Positions 327-29,590 of a DNA stretch of 64,000 nucleotides are shown here, piece after piece. The notes below the pieces were generated by a model, which made no database searches, was not told the DNA's origin, and was given only the letters and a program-made list of their open reading frames with translations. The stretch is taken from the NCBI RefSeq assembly GCF_965641715.1, contig NZ_OZ282453.1; one strand, written 5' to 3'. Within the stretch, counting starts at the first letter, position 1, and the number at the start of each line of letters is the position of its first letter. The position numbers were made by a program, and so were the translations under genes. Origin of the DNA: Escherichia coli (GTDB taxonomy: Bacteria > Pseudomonadota > Gammaproteobacteria > Enterobacterales > Enterobacteriaceae).

Positions 327-430
327 CCGGAGCGCCTTATCTTGCCAGATGCTGCGTGAACACCTTACCCGGCCTATAGGAATGTGCAGAATCACCCTGT
401 AGGCCTGATAAGCGTAGCGCATCAGGCAAT
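327..430. repeat. REP/BIME cluster downstream of the adhesin gene
   Basis: Canonical REP unit gtaggcctgataagcgtagcgcatcaggcaat at about 400-430 plus a degenerate REP-like unit at about 327-380; short direct repeat ttgcccttag at 308-317 and 438-447 flanks the cluster. Confidence 0.55.
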
Positions 431-468
431 TTGGCGTTTGCCCTTAGTCACACTAACTTAATGGATCA

Positions 469-3400
469 TTACCACTGAATACCGGCACCGAGTGCGGCGG
501 AGTATTCACCCTGGCTATTGGTACTACCTTGTAATTTGTAGACCCAACGACCATTGGCGCTCACCATCGACACACCTAAAGCAACTGCCGATTCACCGTT
601 GTAAGTACCGCCACCAATAGAGGCCATGCTGGCACCTGGAGTGTAAGCCTGCGGCAGACCGGTCATTGCCATTGCAGAAGCGATACCACCGCTCAACTTG
701 CTTTCAGTTTTAGACAGTTTGTTATCCATCTCAACCATCCGCTGATCGGTGTATTGCTTCGTTTCCTGCACGCTTTGCTTCAACTGCGCGTAGTTCACCG
801 CGTCGTTGTTGTTGACGCCAGCGGAGACGTTGCTGATACGAGTCGTACCGCCGTTGCCCCCACCGAGGGTGATATTGCTATAGTCAACAGAACCATCAGC
901 GTTGGTGTCGTAACGTACACCGCCCGCCTCAGAAGACTTCAACTGTGCCACGTTAACAGCATCGGTGTCGTTTTTACCTGCGGCTACGTTGGTGATACGA
1001 CGTTGATTAGTAGATGAGCCTACAGAGATCGTATTTTCTTCGGTTGCCACAGACCCTGTACCCAGTGCGACGCTGTTATCCGCGGCAGCAATGGAACCAG
1101 AACCAATCGCGACGCTATCTTTACCCTGCGCGCTGGCATCTACACCATCGGTATTGGTCTTGAAGTACTTGGTGCTACCGGTGGTGACGATATCGCCAAT
1201 ACCGTTTTCGATATTAGTAACGCGAGTATCCAGATTAGTGACCTGATTGTTCAGGTTAGTAATGCTCTGGGTATTCTGGGAAACCTGCGCATCCGTTACT
1301 TTCAACTGACCTACGTTGACCGCATCGGTATCCGCTGAACCAGCTGCGACGTTGGTGATCTGACGTTGACCGTCTTCACTACCAACAGAAAACTCACCTA
1401 CAGAGTTCTGCGGTGCGTCCATGTTGTAGGCGGTGTAGCCAGTCTGTGCACCACGGGTGGTCTGAGAACCGTTACCCATTGCAATACTGTTTGCATGGTT
1501 TGCGCGTGCGTTACTGCCGATAGCAATGCCGTTGATCGCATCAGCCAGAACCAGAGTGTTCAAACCGATACCAATACCTGCATTACCATTAACGACAGTT
1601 TTCGCACCCATTGCCAGCGAGTCTTCACCAACGGCCAGTGAGTCTTCTGCCGTTGAGTTGGCGTGAAAGTACTTGGTTGGCGTGGTTGCGACCGCACCAA
1701 TCGCATTCTGCAATTGACGAACCGTAACGGCGTCATGGGCTTCGGAACCATCAGCTACGTTGATGATTTGGCGGTATTTACCGTCATTACCAATTGACAA
1801 TGCACCTAGCAGTTCGCCGTCAGTGGTGTCATAACCAATCACCACGCCATTTTCCGTTACGCTAGTGTCACGAGAACCTTTGGCAATCACACGGCTGGAA
1901 ACGGAGCTGCTACCCAGCGCAATACCGGTATCAACGGTGCTATTGCTGTTCTGACCAATGGCTACGCTGCTGGCACCAGACGCGACAGCGTTATAACCTA
2001 CAGCTGTAGCGCCGACACCAGAGGCGCTTGCATCGTTAAAGGCTAAACCGTTGTCGTTAGTACGAACGTAGTTGATACCAGCGCCATTTTCTTCGATATA
2101 GGTTGCGTCGGTGTTACCAGCAAGCTGATTGATGATTTGGCTGTTCTGCTCAATCATCATATTCGTCGCATTCAACTGAGAACCGTTCACTGCATCGGTA
2201 CTGTCCTCACTAATACTGCCATTAGCGACATTAGTGATGATGCTGGCTTTACCGTCATGGCTGGCATTGTAGGCTCCTGCACCGCCATTGGCAGTCTCAT
2301 CCCACAGCAGGGCGTTATCATCAAGCGCATCCAGGGCGTCACCGACGTTGTTGTACTCGGCGTTCGCAATGGTGTAAGTCGGTGCGGTGATGGTGCCGTC
2401 AGCGTTAACTTCTGCATCACCACCCAGCGCATCAGCGATGTACTTGTTGGTGGTATACAGTTGTGAGCCGTTAATAGCATCGCTGCTGGTTGCGGAGACT
2501 GTACCGGCTGCAACATTAGTGATCTTGCTGGCGGAGTTATCTTTCCCGTGACCAGCACTGAATGCACCTTTACCATCATTGGCTGTTGCATCCCACAGCA
2601 GAGCATCATCGAGAGTGGTGTCGATGGCGTTCAGGGCATCACCGACGTTATCGTAATCAGCATTAGCAATGGTGTACGTCGGCGCAGTGATGGTGCCGTC
2701 TGCATTGATTTCGGCACCACCACCCAACGCATCTACGACGTACTTATTGGTGGTATAGAGTTGCGAGCCGTTCACAGCATCAGAGCTTGTGCTTGAAACA
2801 TCCCCGTTTGCGACATCAGTGATCACGCTTGCGTCACCATTAGTACCGTGTTTGGCACTAAATTTATCTACGGAAGCGTCCCAAAGCAGGGCATCGCCGA
2901 GAGACGTGCTAAATGAGGAGTTAATCGCAGCTAGTGCATCGCCGACGTTATAATAATTTGTTTCACCGATTTTGTAGGTTGGACCGGTAAACACACCGTC
3001 AGTATTCACAGAAGCATTGCCGCCGAAGTAGGTGGCGATATTGCTGCTTAAGTCATAAAGCTGGCTGCCGTTAATGGCATCGGAACTGGTTGCAGTGACT
3101 GCGCCGTCCAGGATATTGGTGATTTTGCTGGCGGCGTTGTTGCCATGAGCAGCCGTGAAGACACCATTGTCCTTATCCCATTTCAGCGCATCTTCACCAA
3201 GGTTAGTCACCGTCTCAGTCAGGTTAGAGATGTTGGTGGTGTTAGTGGCAATATTGGTGGTATTCGTCGCCACAGCATCGTTGGTGGTTTTCAGCTGGGA
3301 GCCGTTAACGGCATCAGTGCTGCCAGCCGTCAGGTCGGCATCTTTAACGTTGGTGATTTTGCTGGTGGCGTTGTTGCCGTGAGCTGCCGTGAATACACCA

Positions 3401-5358
3401 TTGTCCTTATCCCATTTCAGCGCATCTTCACCAAGGTTAGTCACCGTCTCAGTCAGGTTAGAGATGTTGGTGGTGTTAGTGGCAATATTGGAAGTGTTAT
3501 TGGCGATATTGGTGGTATTCGTCGCCACAGCATCGTTGGTGGTTTTCAGCTGAGAGCCGTTAACGGCATCGGTGCTGTCAGCCGTCAGGTCGGCATCTTT
3601 AACGTTGGTGATTTTGCTGGTGGCGTCGGTGCCATGAGCTGCCGTGAATACACCATTGTCCTTATCCCATTTCAGCGCATCTTCACCAAGGTTAGTCACC
3701 GTCTCAGTCAGGTTAGAGATGTTGGATGTGTTAGTGGCGATATTGGTGGTGTTGGCTGCCACGGCATCGTTGGTGGTTTTCAGCTGAGAGCCATTAACCG
3801 CGTCAGTGCTGCCAGCCGTCAGGTCGCCAGCGGTGACGTTGGTGATTTTGCTGGTGGCATCAGTACCGTGTGCGGCGCTGAATGCTGTACCCTTCCAGAG
3901 GAGGGCATCATCCTTAAGGTCGCCAACGGAATCCGTCAGGTTGGTGATATTGGTGGTGTTAGTGGCGATATTGGTGGTGTTGGTTGCCACATTATCATTG
4001 GTGGTTTTCAGCTGAGAGCCGTTAACGGCGTCTTTACTGGTAGCCGAAATATCGCCATCTTTTACATTGATGATTTTGTTTTCTGCTACGGTACTGGTAA
4101 TCGTTCCATCAGCATTTTTAACAATATAATTGGCGCTGAAAGCCCCTTTAGCTGAGTCCCAGTGCAGAGTTTCATTGTCAAGGTACTGGAGTGCTTCACC
4201 AACGTTATTGAAATTCTTTTTCTTCAGTTGAAAAGACATATCCATTATTGTTCCGTTAGTAGCAACATTTGCTCCGCCTCCCAGCCTGTCTGCTACTGAC
4301 CTACTAATGGCGTAAAGTTGTGAACCGTTAATGGCTTCTTTACTGTCCGTTGAGATTGTACCTGCCGCCATATTGACGATGCGACGCTGCGCTGACCCAG
4401 AGCCTACCGATACAACGTTGTCTTCACCTGCTGTAGAGTTTGCACCAATCGCGACGGAGTTATTCCCTCCTGCAGAGGATGAACTTCCTAATGCAAGACT
4501 GTTTGATCCAACCGCAGAACTTCCTGTACCGATCGCAATAGCATTTGCGGTTGATGCGCAGCTGTTCTGGCCTAATGCGATGGTGTTTGTGTTTGATGCT
4601 TGCGCATTTTGCCCCAAGGCAAGAGCACTTGCGCCAGTAGCCGCTGCTGTATATCCCAGGGCAACAGAACCTTCACCTGTTGAATCACTGTTTGCACCTA
4701 ATGCAAGACTGTTTTTGCCTCGAGCTTTCGCTTTAGTACCTACAGCCGTCGCATTTTCAGCGGCTTCGGTCTCAGCACCTATCGCAATGGAGTTTGCTGC
4801 ACTGGCAAGTGATTGCCTGCCTAATGCCAGAGAGTCTGCGCCGTTCGCCTTTGCAGATTTTCCCAGCACTAAAGAGTTGCTGGCAGTAGTAGCAGCTTGT
4901 GCTCCGACCCCCAGGACAACTGAATATTCTGCCAGTCCGTCGGCCCCACTACCGATTGCGATCGCTCGGTTTCCGGAAGCTTCTGCCACTTGTCCGATTG
5001 ATACCGATCTCTCTCCGGTTGCGTAGCTTTGGTAACCTAATGCAGTCGAACCAATACCTGTAGCCCAGGCGTTCGCGCCCACCGCAACTGCACCAGTCCC
5101 ATTGCCCACTGAGGACGCTCGTGCACCCTGGCCAATAGCTACCCAGACATCAGTGATTTCTGTTGGATCAGAGAATGTGCCACCATCAAGTGACGCACTG
5201 GCGTTTGCCCCAAACGACGAAAACATTCCACCCGCAACCAGGGCAGAAATTAACAGCTTACTGCGACCAGATTTCTTACCACGGCTCTTCGCTGTTTCGC
5301 TGGCAACGCTATAACTGCCCGTCGCCGGATTCCAGATGACTTTAAATATTTTGTTCAT
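469..5358 (-). CDS. upaG: Trimeric autotransporter adhesin, SadA/UpaG/EhaG family, 1629 aa
   Basis: N-terminal extended signal peptide [10 protein letters not shown]...; Ala/Gly/Ser-rich head repeats (NSLALG, NSVAIG); many neck motifs S(T)DAVNGSQL; Asn/Thr-rich coiled-coil stalk; C-terminal YadA-like anchor ending ...[10 protein letters not shown]. Symbol assigned by family and position only, allele not determined. Confidence 0.85.
3140..4110. repeat. Four near-identical tandem repeat units (about 234-255 bp, 78-85 aa each) inside the adhesin stalk, with 7-aa NTTNIAT-type sub-repeats
   Basis: The string cattgtccttatcccatttcagcgcatcttcaccaaggttagtcaccgtctcagtcaggttagagatgttgg recurs at about 3165, 3399 and 3654; the antisense ORF 3145..4155 shows the same peptide three times, confirming DNA-level identity. 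Confidence 0.75.
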
Positions 5359-5401
5359 TATTGATGTTCTCTATTCCTTGATATAAGCGCAGAAGCTGCA
5401 T

Positions 5402-6085
5402 TTATTTTTTGTTTTTTCGCTGCCGAGTTTCAGCAGATTGAACAGTGTCGAACTGGAGATTGGCCATATTGATGGACAACTTCAGATACTTCAGGTTATT
5501 AGGCGAAACGCCTTTTAATGTCAGATTAATGTCTTGCCATTGACCAGGCATTAATTGCAGAGTGGAATTCAGAGCGGTATTGAAAAGTAATTGTTGCCAC
5601 TTCGCCAGAGCTTTGGCATCGGTGGGCCTTTCATTGCCCCATGTAGCATGAAAACCAATATTTGATACGGGAACGCTTAATAGGTTGACCAGCGAAATAC
5701 GAATAACGCTGCCGTTTTCAACTGCATCAATAGCCAGCACCCGACCCGCCAAACCGACAGAGCCGTTATTTAAAATGAAGTAGTGTGTTTGTGCTGGGTT
5801 AAATTCTGTGAAGACAAATTCATCCTGCTTTTCTTTAACTCCCTTCACCACACTAGCAAGCGTTTTGGTACTACTTATGATGGCAGTTTGCTGTTTTTCA
5901 AATAGTTCTATCTTGCGTTTATCTTGTTCTTGTTGTTTTTCAAGTTGCTCTATTTTACTTTTTTGCAACTCTTGCTGTTTGGAAAGATCGTCGATTAGTT
6001 TTGCTTTTCCAATATAGTCACACCCTGTCAACATGCAGAGTGGCGATATCATTAACAAGCTTAATAGTATCTTTTTTAGATTCAT
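5402..6085 (-). CDS. SadB-like inner-membrane lipoprotein, 227 aa, putative adhesin surface-display helper
   Basis: Signal peptide with lipobox LTGC followed by Asp at +2 (CDY), an inner-membrane retention signal; coiled-coil-prone Gln/Glu/Lys-rich region; start has SD aaaggaa; 43 bp upstream of and co-oriented with the adhesin gene, as in Salmonella sadB-sadA. Confidence 0.7.
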   Translation of the reverse strand: MNLKKILLSLLMISPLCMLTGCDYIGKAKLIDDLSKQQELQKSKIEQLEKQQEQDKRKIELFEKQQTAIISSTKTLASVVKGVKEKQDEFVFTEFNPAQTHYFILNNGSVGLAGRVLAIDAVENGSVIRISLVNLLSVPVSNIGFHATWGNERPTDAKALAKWQQLLFNTALNSTLQLMPGQWQDINLTLKGVSPNNLKYLKLSINMANLQFDTVQSAETRQRKNKK

Positions 6086-6630
6086 AGGATGAATTCCTTT
6101 TCATAATCCTGATGCGTTGAAAATTACTTTACAATCATTTGCTTTATGAATGATCAAGCTAAATAAATTCACGGTGAAAATTTATAATATTTTTAATTGG
6201 TCGTTACTGTGAATGTGTTATTCAATGCAGAAATATTTTAGTTTGTTGCCGATTATTATATTAATCGCGCGGATTCTAATGATTGGTGTCAATCGATGTC
6301 AAATTTTTAAAGGGATAAGGTGAGAAAAAGTCAAAGGATAATATTTGTATGGTGAATGTTTTATAGTGATAAGGACAGTTTGAGTTGGAAAATATAAATA
6401 AATAGTTATGATATAAGCATGTTTATGCTGATATTTATAGCTGTAAATTATATATTAATTTTTATTGCGTAGCATATTTTCAGATTTTAACCTGCTAAAA
6501 TTATTCAGGTGAGTGGGAAGAATTGAAAAGATAATGTTAATAGATTTCGATATCTGAAATATGCTCCTGCATTTGCCAGCAGGAGCGAATAAAAATGAGG
6601 AAACTTTAGTTGTATTGACCAGTAGGGGAC
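6086..6630 (-). promoter_or_regulatory. Long AT-rich intergenic region holding the yibL terminator and the presumed promoter of the lipoprotein-adhesin operon
   Basis: 545 bp of very AT-rich sequence (for example ttataatatttttaattgg, aaatataaataaatagttatgatataagc) between yibL stop and the lipoprotein start. Confidence 0.4.
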
Positions 6631-6993
6631 TTAAAACGCGGTCTTTGAGAAGCCGGTCATCTCTTCCAGGCCCATTTCGCGGCCCAGCGCGGTCATTGGG
6701 TGAACAACCACCAGTCCGCGAACACTTTTCTTCAGCTTGCCCATATCAGCCTGCTCTTTTTTGGTAATTGCGCGCTGAAACGGCATCTTCATCAGCTTCT
6801 GTGCTTCTTTACTCAGTTTCTGGCTGTGAACTTCACGCAGGCGGGCAATTTCTGCTTCCAGCGTGGCTTTCTCTTTTTCCAGCTCGGCATATTTGTCTGC
6901 GGCTTCAACCAGCGACAGATCGGCCTGCTGGTGGCGGATGGCGTCCAGACGATCGCTGAGACGTTTGATTTCGTTTTTTTCGACTTCTTTCAT
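6631..6993 (-). CDS. yibL: YibL, ribosome-associated protein of unknown function, 120 aa
   Basis: Translation [28 protein letters not shown]... matches recalled K-12 YibL in length and position next to mtlR/yibT. Confidence 0.85.
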
Positions 6994-7277
6994 GTGATGG
7001 CTTCTGATAAAGATAAATTTATAGCCCCTAGTATGCGCGACCAGGTGCTTTGTTCACAACTGATGACATTGCAATAGTTCCGCAACGTAATCATTTATAT
7101 GCTTAAAAACTACGCAATTTATTGATTAATTAAGAAATCTATAGAAAAAAGATAATAAACAGAAGCGGATGATTATTGAGGATTCAGCACGTTTTCCTTA
7201 ATGTCATCTTTACCGGGAACCTAAACTAAAATTGGCGGCCGCGCATTCCCGGCGCGGGGTAATACGGAGATATCATC

Positions 7278-7487
7278 ATGGGCAAATTAGGTGAAAACGT
7301 TCCGCTTCTTATCGATAAAGCCGTAGATTTCATGGCATCAAGCCAGGCGTTCCGGGAGTATCTGAAAAAACTTCCTCCCCGTAACGCGATTCCGTCCGGA
7401 ATACCCGATGAAAGCGTGCCGTTATATCTACAACGTCTGGAGTATTATCGTCGGCTTTATCGGCCGAAGCAGGTAGAGGGACAGTAA
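7278..7487 (+). CDS. yibT: YibT small protein, 69 aa
   Basis: 69-aa [31 protein letters not shown]... convergent with mtlR, matching K-12 gene order. Confidence 0.8.
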
Positions 7488-7497
7488 GCGAAAGTAC

Positions 7498-8085
7498 TTA
7501 CTTTTGGAAGGCTTTTTTTAAGCTGATTCTGGAAATCAGCTCTGTCAGTGAAAGGACCATTGTTGATCGCACAGCCTGTTGATAGCGCTGAATTTGCATT
7601 GCATACAAACTGGAGTCTGCTGGTTCAAACTGTGGCGGCGGTGGCAACGCCGCCACGCAGTGCAGTTCACCAAAGGGTCCAAGGATCTCGTCGTCGGTAA
7701 AGGCGTACTCGTTGCCGTCGTGATTTAGTTCTTCACGCAATGCCATCAGCAGCTCCGCATCTTCGTATTCCTGGCGGTTAATGACGCCCAACCCGTAAAT
7801 GAGTTTTAAACGCACAGAAAGATCGCCCAGCGGACCATCGCCGTCGAGTAACGGTTCTACAGCATACTTCACCGCGTAATCGTCTTTGCGGAATACCTGA
7901 AGCACCAGAAGATTTACCGCCTCGGTCAGGAGCTCGACGGCGGTGATCAGAAAGCTTCGCACGGTTTTGCCAGCATTCAGACGCTCAAGCACACGGTTTT
8001 CAAAGGCCTGGGTTTGTTCCATTGTTGCCTGCATATCTGACAATCTGTTATTCGGGCGCAGGGTGTCCTGCGCCTGGTCCACCAT
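7498..8085 (-). CDS. mtlR: Mannitol operon repressor MtlR, 195 aa
   Basis: Length and sequence [36 protein letters not shown]...; immediately downstream of mtlD, start overlapping the mtlD stop (TAATG). Confidence 0.93.
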   Translation of the reverse strand: MVDQAQDTLRPNNRLSDMQATMEQTQAFENRVLERLNAGKTVRSFLITAVELLTEAVNLLVLQVFRKDDYAVKYAVEPLLDGDGPLGDLSVRLKLIYGLGVINRQEYEDAELLMALREELNHDGNEYAFTDDEILGPFGELHCVAALPPPPQFEPADSSLYAMQIQRYQQAVRSTMVLSLTELISRISLKKAFQK

Positions 8086-15582: not shown

Positions 15583-17423
15583 TTATTGCGACTGCCGGAC
15601 ACGTTGACCACGGCAAAACAACCTTATTGCAGGCGATTACTGGCGTAAATGCCGATCGTCTGCCGGAAGAAAAAAAGCGCGGCATGACTATCGATCTCGG
15701 CTATGCCTACTGGCCGCAGCCGGATGGCCGCGTGCCTGGTTTTATCGACGTACCCGGTCATGAAAAGTTTCTTTCCAACATGCTGGCGGGCGTTGGTGGT
15801 ATCGATCACGCGCTGTTGGTGGTGGCGTGCGATGACGGCGTGATGGCACAGACCCGTGAGCATCTGGCGATTTTGCAGCTGACCGGTAACCCGATGCTGA
15901 CAGTGGCGCTGACCAAAGCCGATCGCGTGGACGAAGCGCGTGTTAATGAGGTTGAACGCCAGGTAAAGGAGGTGCTGCGGGAATACGGTTTTGCTGAGGC
16001 AAAACTGTTTATCACCGCAGCAACCGAAGGTCGGGGAATTGATGCCCTGCGCGAGCATCTGCTTCAGTTACCAGAACGTGAACACGCCAGCCAACATAGT
16101 TTCCGCCTCGCGATCGACCGCGCATTTACCGTAAAAGGTGCCGGGCTGGTCGTCACCGGTACGGCGTTAAGCGGGGAAGTGAAGGTAGGCGATTCACTAT
16201 GGCTGACTGGTGTAAATAAACCGATGCGTGTACGTGCACTGCATGCACAAAACCAGCCAACAGAAACCGCTCATGCCGGCCAGCGTATCGCGCTTAACAT
16301 CGCGGGGGATGCGGAAAAAGAGCAGATTAACCGTGGCGACTGGCTGCTTGCCGATGTGCCGCCAGAGCCGTTCACGCGGGTGATTGTCGAGCTTCAAACC
16401 CATACGCCGCTGACCCAGTGGCAGCCGCTGCATATTCACCACGCCGCCAGCCACGTTACGGGACGCGTTTCGCTGCTGGAAGATAACCTTGCCGAGCTGG
16501 TGTTCGACACGCCGCTGTGGCTGGCGGATAACGATCGCTTAGTGTTGCGCGATATCTCGGCCCGCAATACGCTGGCGGGGGCGCGTGTGGTGATGCTTAA
16601 CCCGCCGCGTCGCGGTAAACGTAAGCCGGAATATCTGCAATGGCTGGCGTCTCTTGCACGGGCGCAGAGCGATGCCGATGCGTTATCTGTTCATCTGGAA
16701 CGCGGAGCGGTTAACCTTGCGGATTTCGCCTGGGCGCGCCAGCTCAACGGCGAAGGGATGCGCGAACTGCTGCAACAGCCTGGCTATATTCAGGCTGGTT
16801 ATAGCTTGTTGAATGCGCCGGTTGCCGCCCGCTGGCAGCGGAAAATTCTCGACACATTAGCGACTTATCATGAGCAACATCGCGATGAACCTGGTCCTGG
16901 GCGCGAGCGTCTGCGACGTATGGCGTTGCCAATGGAAGATGAAGCGCTGGTACTGTTGCTGATTGAAAAGATGCGCGAAAGCGGCGACATCCACAGCCAT
17001 CACGGCTGGTTGCATCTGCCAGATCACAAAGCGGGCTTCAGCGAAGAGCAGCAGGCCATCTGGCAAAAAGCAGAGCCGCTGTTTGGTGACGAGCCGTGGT
17101 GGGTGCGTGACCTGGCAAAAGAGACGGGAACCGACGAGCAGGCAATGCGTCTGACGCTACGCCAGGCGGCCCAACAGGGGATAATTACCGCGATCGTCAA
17201 AGATCGTTATTACCGTAACGATCGGATTGTCGAGTTTGCCAATATGATCCGCGATCTCGATCAGGAATGTGGTTCAACCTGCGCGGCGGATTTCCGCGAT
17301 CGCTTAGGGGTTGGGCGAAAACTGGCGATTCAAATCCTGGAATATTTTGACCGCATTGGCTTTACGCGTCGTCGTGGAAATGATCATTTATTGCGCGACG
17401 CATTATTATTTCCGGAAAAATAA
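15579..17423 (+). CDS. selB: Selenocysteine-specific translation elongation factor, 614 aa
   Basis: GTP-binding motif [11 protein letters not shown] at the N-terminus; length and position match. Confidence 0.95.
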
Positions 17424-17483
17424 GGAAATGATTAATTAAGTTTTAAAATAAATTAATACAAAATTCTTATGATTTTAAAAAAA

Positions 17484-17516
17484 GCACATTGTTTAATGAA
17501 TACAATGTGCTTTTTA
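17484..17516 (+). terminator. Rho-independent terminator downstream of selB
   Basis: Stem gcacattg / caatgtgc with an 11-nt loop followed by TTTTT. Confidence 0.7.
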
Positions 17517-17612
17517 TTAGATTAATTTTGCTAAACAATAATACTGATCATATTTTCGAATGAAAATCCTCAGTAAGCTGCCCGCCCTTTTTTACACTTT
17601 CAGGAGTGTGTT

Positions 17613-18764
17613 ATGGCAGCTTCAACCTTTTTTATTCCTTCTGTGAATGTCATCGGCGCTGACTCATTGGCTGATGCAATGAATATGATGGCAGAATATG
17701 GGTTTCGCCGTACATTGATTGTCACTGACAGTATGTTAACGAAATTAGGTATGGCGGGCGATGTGCAAAAAGCACTGGAAGAACGCAATATTTTTAGCAT
17801 TATTTATGATGGCACCCAACCTAACCCAACCACGGAAAACGTCGCCGCAGGTTTGAAATTACTTAAAGAAAATAATTGCGATAGCGTGATTTCCTTAGGC
17901 GGTGGTTCTCCGCATGACTGTGCAAAAGGTATTGCGCTGGTGGCAGCCAATGGTGGTGATATCCGTGATTATGAAGGCGTTGACCGCTCTGCAAAACCGC
18001 AGCTGCCGATGATCGCCATCAATACCACTGCGGGTACAGCATCAGAAATGACTCGTTTCTGCATCATCACCGACGAAGCGCGTCACATCAAAATGGCGAT
18101 TGTTGATAAGCACGTGACTCCGCTGCTTTCTGTCAATGACTCCTCTCTGATGATTGGTATGCCGAAGTCACTGACCGCCGCAACGGGTATGGATGCCTTA
18201 ACGCACGCTATCGAAGCGTATGTTTCTATTGCCGCCACGCCGATCACTGACGCTTGTGCACTGAAAGCCGTGACCATGATTGCCGAAAACCTGCCGTTAG
18301 CCGTTGAAGATGGCAGTAATGCGAAAGCGCGTGAAGCAATGGCTTATGCCCAGTTCCTCGCCGGTATGGCGTTCAATAATGCTTCTCTGGGTTATGTTCA
18401 TGCGATGGCGCACCAGCTGGGCGGTTTCTACAACCTGCCACACGGTGTATGTAACGCCGTTCTGCTGCCGCATGTTCAGGTATTCAACAGCAAAGTCGCC
18501 GCTGCACGTCTGCGTGACTGTGCCGCTGCAATGGGCGTGAACGTGACAGGTAAAAACGACGCGGAAGGTGCTGAAGCCTGCATTAACGCCATCCGTGAAC
18601 TGGCGAAGAAAGTGGATATCCCGGCAGGCCTACGCGACCTGAACGTGAAAGAAGAAGATTTCGCGGTTCTGGCGACTAATGCCCTGAAAGATGCCTGTGG
18701 CTTTACTAACCCGATCCAGGCAACTCACGAAGAAATTGTGGCGATTTATCGCGCAGCGATGTAA
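17613..18764 (+). CDS. yiaY: Fe-containing (group III) alcohol dehydrogenase YiaY, 383 aa
   Basis: Iron-ADH family sequence with GGGSPHD motif; K-12 position between selB and aldB. Confidence 0.9.
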
Positions 18765-28863: not shown

Positions 28864-28865
28864 TG

Positions 28866-28890
28866 CCGGGGCGATGAAGCCCCGGCGTGA
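28866..28890. terminator. GC-rich hairpin between the convergent AraC-type gene and sgbE (possible bidirectional terminator)
   Basis: gccggggcgatgaagccccggc palindrome directly after the AraC-type stop. Confidence 0.45.
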
Positions 28891-28894
28891 GGGA

Positions 28895-29590
28895 TTACTG
28901 CCCGTAATAGGCATTGTCTCCATGCTTACGCAGGTAGTGCTTATCCAGCAGTTCGTTTTGCATGGCAGGGAGCTGCGGCGCAAGCTGGCGCGAGAACAGG
29001 CCCATATAGGCGCACTCTTCCAGCACCACGGCGTTATGCACCGCATCGGCGGCGTTTTTTCCCCAGGCGAACGGGCCGTGAGAATGTACCAGTACCGCCG
29101 GGATTTGTGCCGGGTTCAAACCACGTTCTTCGAAGGTTTGAATGATCACTTCGCCAGTCTGGTATTCATACTCGCCGTTGATCTCCTCTGCTGTCATCTG
29201 GCGCGTGCAGGGGATGGTACCGTAAAAATAATCGGCGTGGGTGGTGCCCCAGGCGGGGAGATCCAGCCCGGCCTGCGACCAGATGGTAGCGTGGCGCGAG
29301 TGGGTATGCACAATACCGCCAATTTCGGCATAGCGACGGTAGAGCGCCAGATGCGTTGGCGTGTCGGACGAGGGCTTTTTGCTGCCTTCCACCACTTTAC
29401 CGCTGGCTATCTCAACCACCACCATATCGTCGGCGGTCATCACGTCGTACTCGACGCCGGAAGGTTTGATTACCATCCATTGCCGCGTTTCGTCTACCGC
29501 GCTGACATTGCCCCAGGTGAACGTCACCAGATGGTGAGCGGGAAGTGCCAGATTTGCCGCCAGCACGTCGGCTTTCAGTTGCTCTAACAT
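28895..29590 (-). CDS. sgbE: L-ribulose-5-phosphate 4-epimerase, 231 aa
   Basis: Class II aldolase/epimerase sequence; length and order sgbH-sgbU-sgbE. Confidence 0.92.

Follow-up and report, generated by a model that had tools for sequence, protein, structure and literature searches.

The long noncoding stretch that separates yibL from an adhesin operon in the Escherichia coli DNA analysed here is far richer in AT than the DNA around it, and the question which it raises is whether this composition has a role in controlling the adhesin. The whole stretch of DNA that was analysed, referred to below as the window, is 64 kb (64,000 nucleotides) in length, and the gap of interest (positions 6086-6630; 545 bp, noncoding) lies between the start of a minus-strand open reading frame (ORF) at 6085 and the end of yibL at 6631. 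On the minus strand the order is mtlA-mtlD-mtlR, yibL, the gap, a lipoprotein gene, the gene for a 1629-aa adhesin, and lldP, with yibT on the plus strand. The two genes flanking the gap, and the adhesin gene, are as follows:

6631..6993, minus strand: yibL, for the YibL ribosome-associated protein
5402..6085, minus strand: gene for a SadB-type inner-membrane lipoprotein (227 aa, 39.9% GC), the first gene of the operon
469..5358, minus strand: gene for a trimeric autotransporter adhesin (1629 aa), an allele of the UpaG/EhaG/SadA family

The identification of yibL is based on its match to NCBIfam NF008244 (E 7.5e-57) and on its annotation under this name in E. coli A30. The lipoprotein matches PDB entry 4C47, the structure of Salmonella SadB, over residues 23-227 (E 6.4e-72); its homologues are annotated as DUF3251 or SadB/YajI family proteins, and a lipobox (LTGC) is present. 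It is followed after 43 nt by the adhesin gene, whose product contains the Pfam domains ESPR, YadA_head, YadA_stalk and YadA_anchor, is 73% identical to EhaG of O157:H7 (near-identical over much of the C-terminal two-thirds), and is encoded at the place which upaG occupies in CFT073. The arrangement of yibL, then a SadB-family gene and a YadA-type adhesin gene, between the mtl and lld operons identifies the gap as the regulatory region of a sadB-like/adhesin operon of the UpaG/EhaG/SadA family, and the original prediction was therefore right in placing it 5' of an adhesin operon, which is read from the minus strand. In Escherichia, Salmonella and Shigella the related sadBA operon is kept at this mtl-lld location, and K-12 has lost it through a deletion; SadB assists in the display of the adhesin, SadA is not detectable in culture, the conditions for its native expression are described as undefined, and experiments swap the native promoter (PMC3953254). 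In the O157:H7 strain Z1767, the sadB-like gene 5' of ehaG reads ATG AAC TAG, with a stop at codon 3, and the annotation of O157:H7 begins a 222-aa lipoprotein at an ATT codon, whereas the genes of CFT073 and of the window are intact. As SadB helps display in Salmonella, the export of EhaG in O157 might be affected by this stop. E. coli SW4848 has an intact promoter region and lipoprotein gene, although its adhesin gene is annotated as a frameshifted pseudogene.

In regard to composition, the claim that the gap is far more AT-rich than the surrounding genome is borne out by sliding-window GC content, and the limits given for it are exact. Its GC content is 29.4%, in comparison to 50.7% for the whole window, and relative to all 545-bp segments of the 64 kb (mean GC 0.507, sd 0.053) it lies at about -4 sd; just 0.3% of these segments are equally low in GC and every one of them overlaps the gap locus. 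The minimum for segments of this length (27.9%) is reached at about 6030-6574 / 6051-6595, and the core of the gap (6303-6560) has 25% GC. A tract with GC below 40% extends from ~5750 to ~6575 (~0.8 kb), and thus includes the promoter described below (hexamers 6302-6273) and the first third of the lipoprotein gene. Runs of at least 8 A/T bases number 20 per kb here versus 3.3 per kb window-wide, and TpA steps occur at twice the window frequency. The gap is also the longest intergenic region in the annotated part of the window, where the median is 168 bp, and is among the three most AT-rich annotated intergenic regions, the other two being 123-189 bp long. The annotations were transferred from the genome of E. 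coli A30, whose identity here is 99.8% and whose colinearity with the window ends at ~28.9 kb; this loss of colinearity indicates an indel, and A30 has a truncated fragment of an IclR-family regulator just before this point (28865-29005). Second only to the gap in AT content is 17333-17877 (35% GC), which lies between selB and yiaY, and ~58.6-64 kb holds the operon for long polar fimbriae (lpf), hokA and a cold-shock gene annotated as cspE.

The part of the gap next to the lipoprotein gene contains the elements expected for initiating its transcription and translation, viz.:

6266..6308, minus strand: core sigma-70 promoter (11/12 consensus match with conserved footprints)
6086..6265, minus strand: predicted 5' untranslated region of ~180 nt, AT-rich and unstructured
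6133-6153, minus strand: palindrome ATCATT-N9-AATGAT, located in the predicted leader and semi-conserved among the alleles of Escherichia and Pseudocitrobacter
6094..6099, minus strand: Shine-Dalgarno sequence AAGGAA of the lipoprotein gene, as read from the sequence

The promoter consists of an A/T-rich stretch just 5' of the -35 hexamer, TTGACA (6302-6297), an 18-nt spacer, TAGAAT (6278-6273), and a GC-rich discriminator, CCGCGCG (6272-6266). TTGACA-18-TAGAAT is the sole 11/12 match to the sigma-70 consensus on both strands of the 64 kb, and the operon promoter is predicted to be intrinsically strong. All nine alleles/genera that were compared have a TTGACA-N17/18-TAnnAT promoter with 180-208 nt between it and the start codon, and in E69 this distance is 172 nt. 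Based on the position of the hexamers, transcription is predicted to start near 6265, which would give a leader of ~180 nt. The description of the gap as a leader in the original prediction is thus appropriate for its promoter-proximal ~180 nt, whereas the other ~365 bp consist of a terminator-like hairpin of yibL and upstream DNA. The leader palindrome, which is replaced by CATTCAT...ATGAATG in one allele, may form a small hairpin in the RNA or bind a protein; folding tests gave no significance for it. The Shine-Dalgarno sequence lies inside a conserved footprint (6103-6089) before the start codon (6085-6083). An ATG at 6104-6102 overlaps this Shine-Dalgarno region and opens an ORF of 28 aa (6018-6104, minus strand), which is out of frame with the lipoprotein gene; codons 1-6 of this ORF (MKRNSS) are kept in E. 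coli and E. marmotae alleles, and in one allele a 1-nt deletion brings it in frame with the lipoprotein. The 28-aa ORF may be a by-product of the conserved ribosome-binding region.

The significance of these elements becomes clearer from a comparison of the gap among related loci. An alignment of 11 gap sequences was made from the window and five other E. coli alleles (including that of O157 ehaG), together with E. fergusonii, E. marmotae, Salmonella enterica, Pseudocitrobacter vendiensis and Citrobacter youngae, with the CFT073 upaG region being compared only pairwise. Mean column conservation in this alignment is 0.53, and five blocks stand out:

6574-6563, minus strand: block 1, the 3' arm of the hairpin that follows yibL
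6490-6473, minus strand: block 2, a box TTAAAATCTGAAAATATG with the core TCTGAAAAT (6476-6484)
6308-6291, minus strand: block 3, the -35 block AAAAATTTGACATCGATT
6284-6268, minus strand: block 4, the -10 block AATCATTAGAATCCGCG
6103-6089, minus strand: block 5, the Shine-Dalgarno block

The promoter is conserved in E. coli alleles, E. marmotae, E. fergusonii, Salmonella and Pseudocitrobacter, whereas the DNA around it is only 54-72% identical. The gap of the window is 71.5% identical to that of CFT073 (by blastn, 71.1% over 93% of the query, so that homology to the upaG/ehaG regions extends to the noncoding DNA), 59% to that of Pseudocitrobacter, 57% to that of O157 and 54% to that of Salmonella. 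Within E. coli, gaps are 57-72% identical, lipoprotein genes 71-90% and yibL 94-97%, and the divergence of the gap within this species is therefore as large as that between genera. Its length and composition, however, are kept. The length is 526-558 bp in 9 of the 11 aligned sequences, and the GC content is 29-36% in all 15 alleles/species measured versus 47-52% for the flanks, the allele of the window being the lowest.

The upaG and ehaG loci of CFT073 and O157:H7 resemble that of the window in having the same yibL - gap - sadB-like - adhesin - lldP position, gaps of 558 and 557 bp with 35.7% and 33.4% GC, respectively, a TTGACA-N18-TA(A/G)AAT promoter separated from the start codon by 190-208 nt, and the TCTGAAAAT box; they differ from it in the low identity of the gap noted above, the identity of yibL being 95-97%. 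The sadBA locus of Salmonella enterica is similar in its lipoprotein and trimeric adhesin genes, its mtl-lld location, its 526-bp gap with 31% GC after yibL, and its silence in culture (PMC3953254), and its promoter reads TTGACA-N17-TAGCAT at 196 nt from the start codon. However, besides its more divergent gap, the Salmonella locus almost lacks the skew between C and G described below.

The explanation which in our view best accounts for these observations, and which we hold to be probable, is that the gap regulates the sadB-like/adhesin operon and that its near-consensus promoter is silenced by H-NS bound to the AT-rich tract. Under this model, H-NS, possibly with StpA/Hha, would coat the whole of this continuous tract (~0.8 kb, ~6575 to ~5750). 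As the tract covers the beginning of the lipoprotein gene as well as the promoter, RNA polymerase would be excluded or trapped, and expression would then require a counter-silencer or an environmental change acting on the tract. For the allele of the window, by analogy with its relatives, it is likely that H-NS coats positions 5750-6575 and occludes the promoter at 6302-6273. A near-consensus promoter in an operon family which is silent in the laboratory argues for repression rather than for a weak promoter. A 2012 study by Totsika is said to report for ehaG the same effect of H-NS as for upaG. In regard to the latter, a statement in PMC5012682, which cites Totsika 2012, is that H-NS represses UpaG, and a statement in PMC12525524, which cites the same work, is that upaG is derepressed by deletion of hns.

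The sequence properties of the tract are those of an H-NS-silenced promoter in so far as AT content is concerned, several hundred bp far above the average in AT spanning the promoter. The high-affinity H-NS motif TCGATAAATT is not enriched in it, with 1 match at up to two mismatches versus 2.3 expected in shuffles and 14 at up to three mismatches versus 14.5 expected. This motif is not required for the binding of H-NS to AT-rich DNA. Curvature as roughly predicted with a wedge model is moderate, its mean being in the top 5% of windows; in this rough prediction there are peaks at 6488 and 6585-6605, of ~16-17 degrees per turn, and the value at the -35 hexamer is ~14.5. A literature search for STM3691 together with H-NS found nothing. 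Taken alone, the link from AT-richness to silencing is correlative. The main idea of the original prediction, viz. silencing by H-NS as a cause of poor expression in the laboratory, agrees with the composition of the gap and with the genetics published for orthologous alleles, and is in this way partly supported.

It is also possible, if on balance rather unlikely, that the main control is exerted by a specific regulator at the TCTGAAAAT box and the sequence adjacent to it, viz. a counter-silencer of the SlyA/MarR type or an activator, with H-NS forming the background. This possibility overlaps the H-NS explanation rather than excluding it. The box, a candidate regulator site judging from its conservation, is located ~210 nt 5' of the predicted transcription start and is found in species ranging from E. 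coli to Salmonella and C. youngae, being conserved across these genera on par with the -35 and -10 hexamers amid DNA that is otherwise scrambled. The box occurs once in the window, and it coincides with the predicted peak of curvature at 6488. By eye, the box showed no convincing fit to the consensus sequences of sigma-54, CRP, IHF, Lrp, Fur or ArgR, nor to those of PhoP, RcsAB, MqsA, the mar-box or ArcA; a statistically unusual result was obtained for SlyA alone. A further lead of this kind is the following element:

6487..6498, minus strand: putative SlyA site TTAGCAGGTTAA, adjoining the box, with 10/12 matches to the SlyA consensus TTAGCAAGCTAA and intact TTA...TAA ends

At up to two mismatches, the SlyA consensus has three matches in the 64 kb, all of which lie within 6052-6498, whereas shuffles of the region lead one to expect 0.11, and none of 1000 reached three. 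SlyA is an established H-NS antagonist. The site TTAGCAGGTTAA resembles the SlyA operator of fimB in E. coli K-12, where a gene related to adhesins is preceded by a long AT-rich region whose silencing by H-NS is relieved by SlyA (PMC3173223), and both loci have a SlyA-like TTA-N6-TAA site ~170-230 bp 5' of the start site. The fimB operator, for which the consensus TTAGCAAGCTAA and the validated site TTAGCATGATAA have been described (PMC5797941, PMC3173223), is also a 10/12 site, lies ~175 bp upstream and works by antagonising H-NS (PMC3173223, PMC5797941). However, the two regions share no sequence ancestry, and the match in the window is post hoc, having been found after ~10 regulator consensus sequences were tried by eye. 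The TTA...TAA ends are intact only in the distal of the three matches, which is retained (at up to two mismatches) in 2 of 9 other alleles, viz. CFT073 and Ecol_743; no such site exists in O157, E. fergusonii, Salmonella or Pseudocitrobacter. It is thus found in some E. coli alleles only and is not conserved among alleles generally, whereas the invariant TCTGAAAAT is not itself a SlyA consensus, and the literature search found no specific regulator for the operon besides H-NS.

The DNA between the promoter and yibL permits yet another interpretation, for which the following two elements are of importance:

6563..6586, minus strand: hairpin GCUCCUGC-UGGCAAAU-GCAGGAGC (fold, centroid -16.9 kcal/mol), ~45 nt past the yibL stop codon
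6303..6562, minus strand: AT-rich upstream spacer (~260 bp, ~25% GC)

At the same place as this hairpin, hairpins with other sequence are predicted in CFT073, E69, Pseudocitrobacter and C. youngae; those predicted in O157, Salmonella and E. fergusonii are weaker or of longer range. The hairpin resembles a terminator of yibL, but its U tract (AUAUUUCAGAU) is weak and a scan for consensus terminators called none. The sense strand of the spacer is poor in G (C52:G15 over 6303-6565), and the ratio of C to G is 1.4-2.1 in 14 of the 15 alleles measured, with Salmonella (1.16) as the exception. While the sequence of the spacer is poorly conserved, its composition and length are maintained in all alleles. 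If transcripts of yibL read through the hairpin, the spacer RNA would, from its base composition, be rut-like, and the weak hairpin together with the G-poor strand suggests Rho-dependent termination of the yibL read-through. A long-range inverted repeat (6551-6563 / 6475-6488), which is absent from other alleles, was treated as due to chance.

The spacer may hence be mainly a transcriptional insulator, in which Rho stops read-through from yibL in a C-rich, G-poor RNA before it reaches the adhesin operon, the AT-richness and the strand skew being reflections of this insulation. We consider this interpretation, which is compatible with silencing by H-NS, to be unlikely as the main one. The poor U tract and the lack of a called terminator, and the skew seen in nearly all alleles, speak for it, as does the lack of stable structure in the 5' untranslated region, although that fold is of this region and not of the spacer. 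However, the nearly skew-free spacer of Salmonella is not accounted for by insulation, which also leaves unexplained the AT-richness of the promoter-proximal leader and of the start of the lipoprotein gene. Under the preferred explanation of silencing by H-NS, the spacer is proposed to be a platform for the spreading of this protein.

The question should also be considered whether the AT-richness has any meaning, as it could reflect a relaxed composition of intergenic DNA or the scar of a foreign island, with the silence of the operon having other causes. In favour of this, intergenic DNA in the window is generally richer in AT than genes (annotated intergenic mean, 46% GC), and K-12-like genomes are without the whole segment. 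However, the gap is 17 points lower than this intergenic mean and is the extreme of the window, its low GC and its length persist across alleles and genera at 54-72% identity, and an effect of hns has been published for orthologues. It will likewise be incorrect to interpret the locus as a recent island: the order yibL-gap-sadB-adhesin is shared by Salmonella, E. fergusonii, E. marmotae, Pseudocitrobacter, Citrobacter youngae and Enterobacter wuhouensis (10 loci from a scan with SadB peptides, with Salmonella, E. fergusonii and E. marmotae found by exact-protein look-up), and the GC content of the adhesin gene, 51.1%, is host-like rather than foreign. In the K-12-like genomes the part corresponding to window positions ~404-6629 (6.2 kb) is missing. 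One end of this deletion lies 1-2 nt past the stop codon of yibL and the other within a REP-like sequence 3' of the adhesin gene, and yibL of K-12 consequently has another 3' flank and no hairpin. The synteny across genera, the host-like GC content and the deletion in K-12 together indicate that the locus is old, and the original prediction that the adhesin genes were horizontally acquired is not supported, PMC3953254 likewise regarding the absence from K-12 as a deletion. We therefore regard it as very improbable that the composition of the gap is without meaning.

The allele of the window (at least 95% identity) is present in 52 of 5426 complete E. coli genomes, and alleles of 60-80% identity in ~1825; alleles of the O157 type are too diverged for detection by blastn and are thus missed by this count. 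Escherichia sp. E1V33 shares the gap allele of the window at 97% identity, yet its yibL is only 94% identical, which suggests that old allelic lineages have been transferred by recombination, the break lying where yibL meets the gap. Metagenome-assembled genomes labelled as Oscillospiraceae, Collinsella and Bacillota contain an E. coli-like lipoprotein (69-87% protein identity), with a yibL of ~99% identity on two of them; these contigs are most likely mis-binned Escherichia DNA.

That the gap harbours a hidden gene for a small protein or sRNA, or a structured leader such as a riboswitch or RNA thermometer, is exceedingly improbable, since, despite its length (545 bp versus the median of 168 bp) and several ORFs of 20-36 aa, an Rfam scan of 5000-7600 (E<=1) gave no match, the single-sequence fold of the leader has a z-score of +0.40, i.e. 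no unusual stability, and its consensus fold over 7 alleles contains 0 consensus pairs. The small-protein ORFs (20-36 aa) were also considered individually and rejected, all of them being broken by stop codons in the closest, 97%-identical allele. No tandem or phase-variable repeats were found in the gap, and a switch of the Dam/OxyR type is unlikely because GATC sites, as read from the alignments, differ between alleles and are not conserved.

Based on these results, the region of the window is a divergent and rare allele of the upaG/ehaG/sadBA regulatory region, and an AT-rich adhesin promoter silenced by H-NS is a well-known pattern that has already been reported for this operon family. Work on UpaG, EhaG and SadA concerns their properties as adhesins and biofilm factors and their use as scaffolds for vaccines or display. 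What is supplied here is a map consisting of a predicted strong promoter, a ~180-nt leader, a conserved upstream box and the extent of the AT-rich tract, and these parts are common to E. coli through Salmonella despite large differences between alleles elsewhere. Due to this, promoter fusions, deletions and pull-downs are easy to design. The practical value lies in this map of promoter, box and leader, and in the observation that length and composition are kept despite the rapid turnover of sequence. A more speculative proposal, which we put forward as quite doubtful, is that the gap is a silencing module constrained in its composition and length, and that the TCTGAAAAT box within it is the docking site of a factor that relieves the silencing by H-NS. 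Selection would in that case hold ~530-560 bp at ~30-36% GC, while the sequence itself turns over within E. coli as much as between genera. If this proposal is true, discovery of the factor would reveal the natural inducing condition of the UpaG/EhaG/SadA adhesins.
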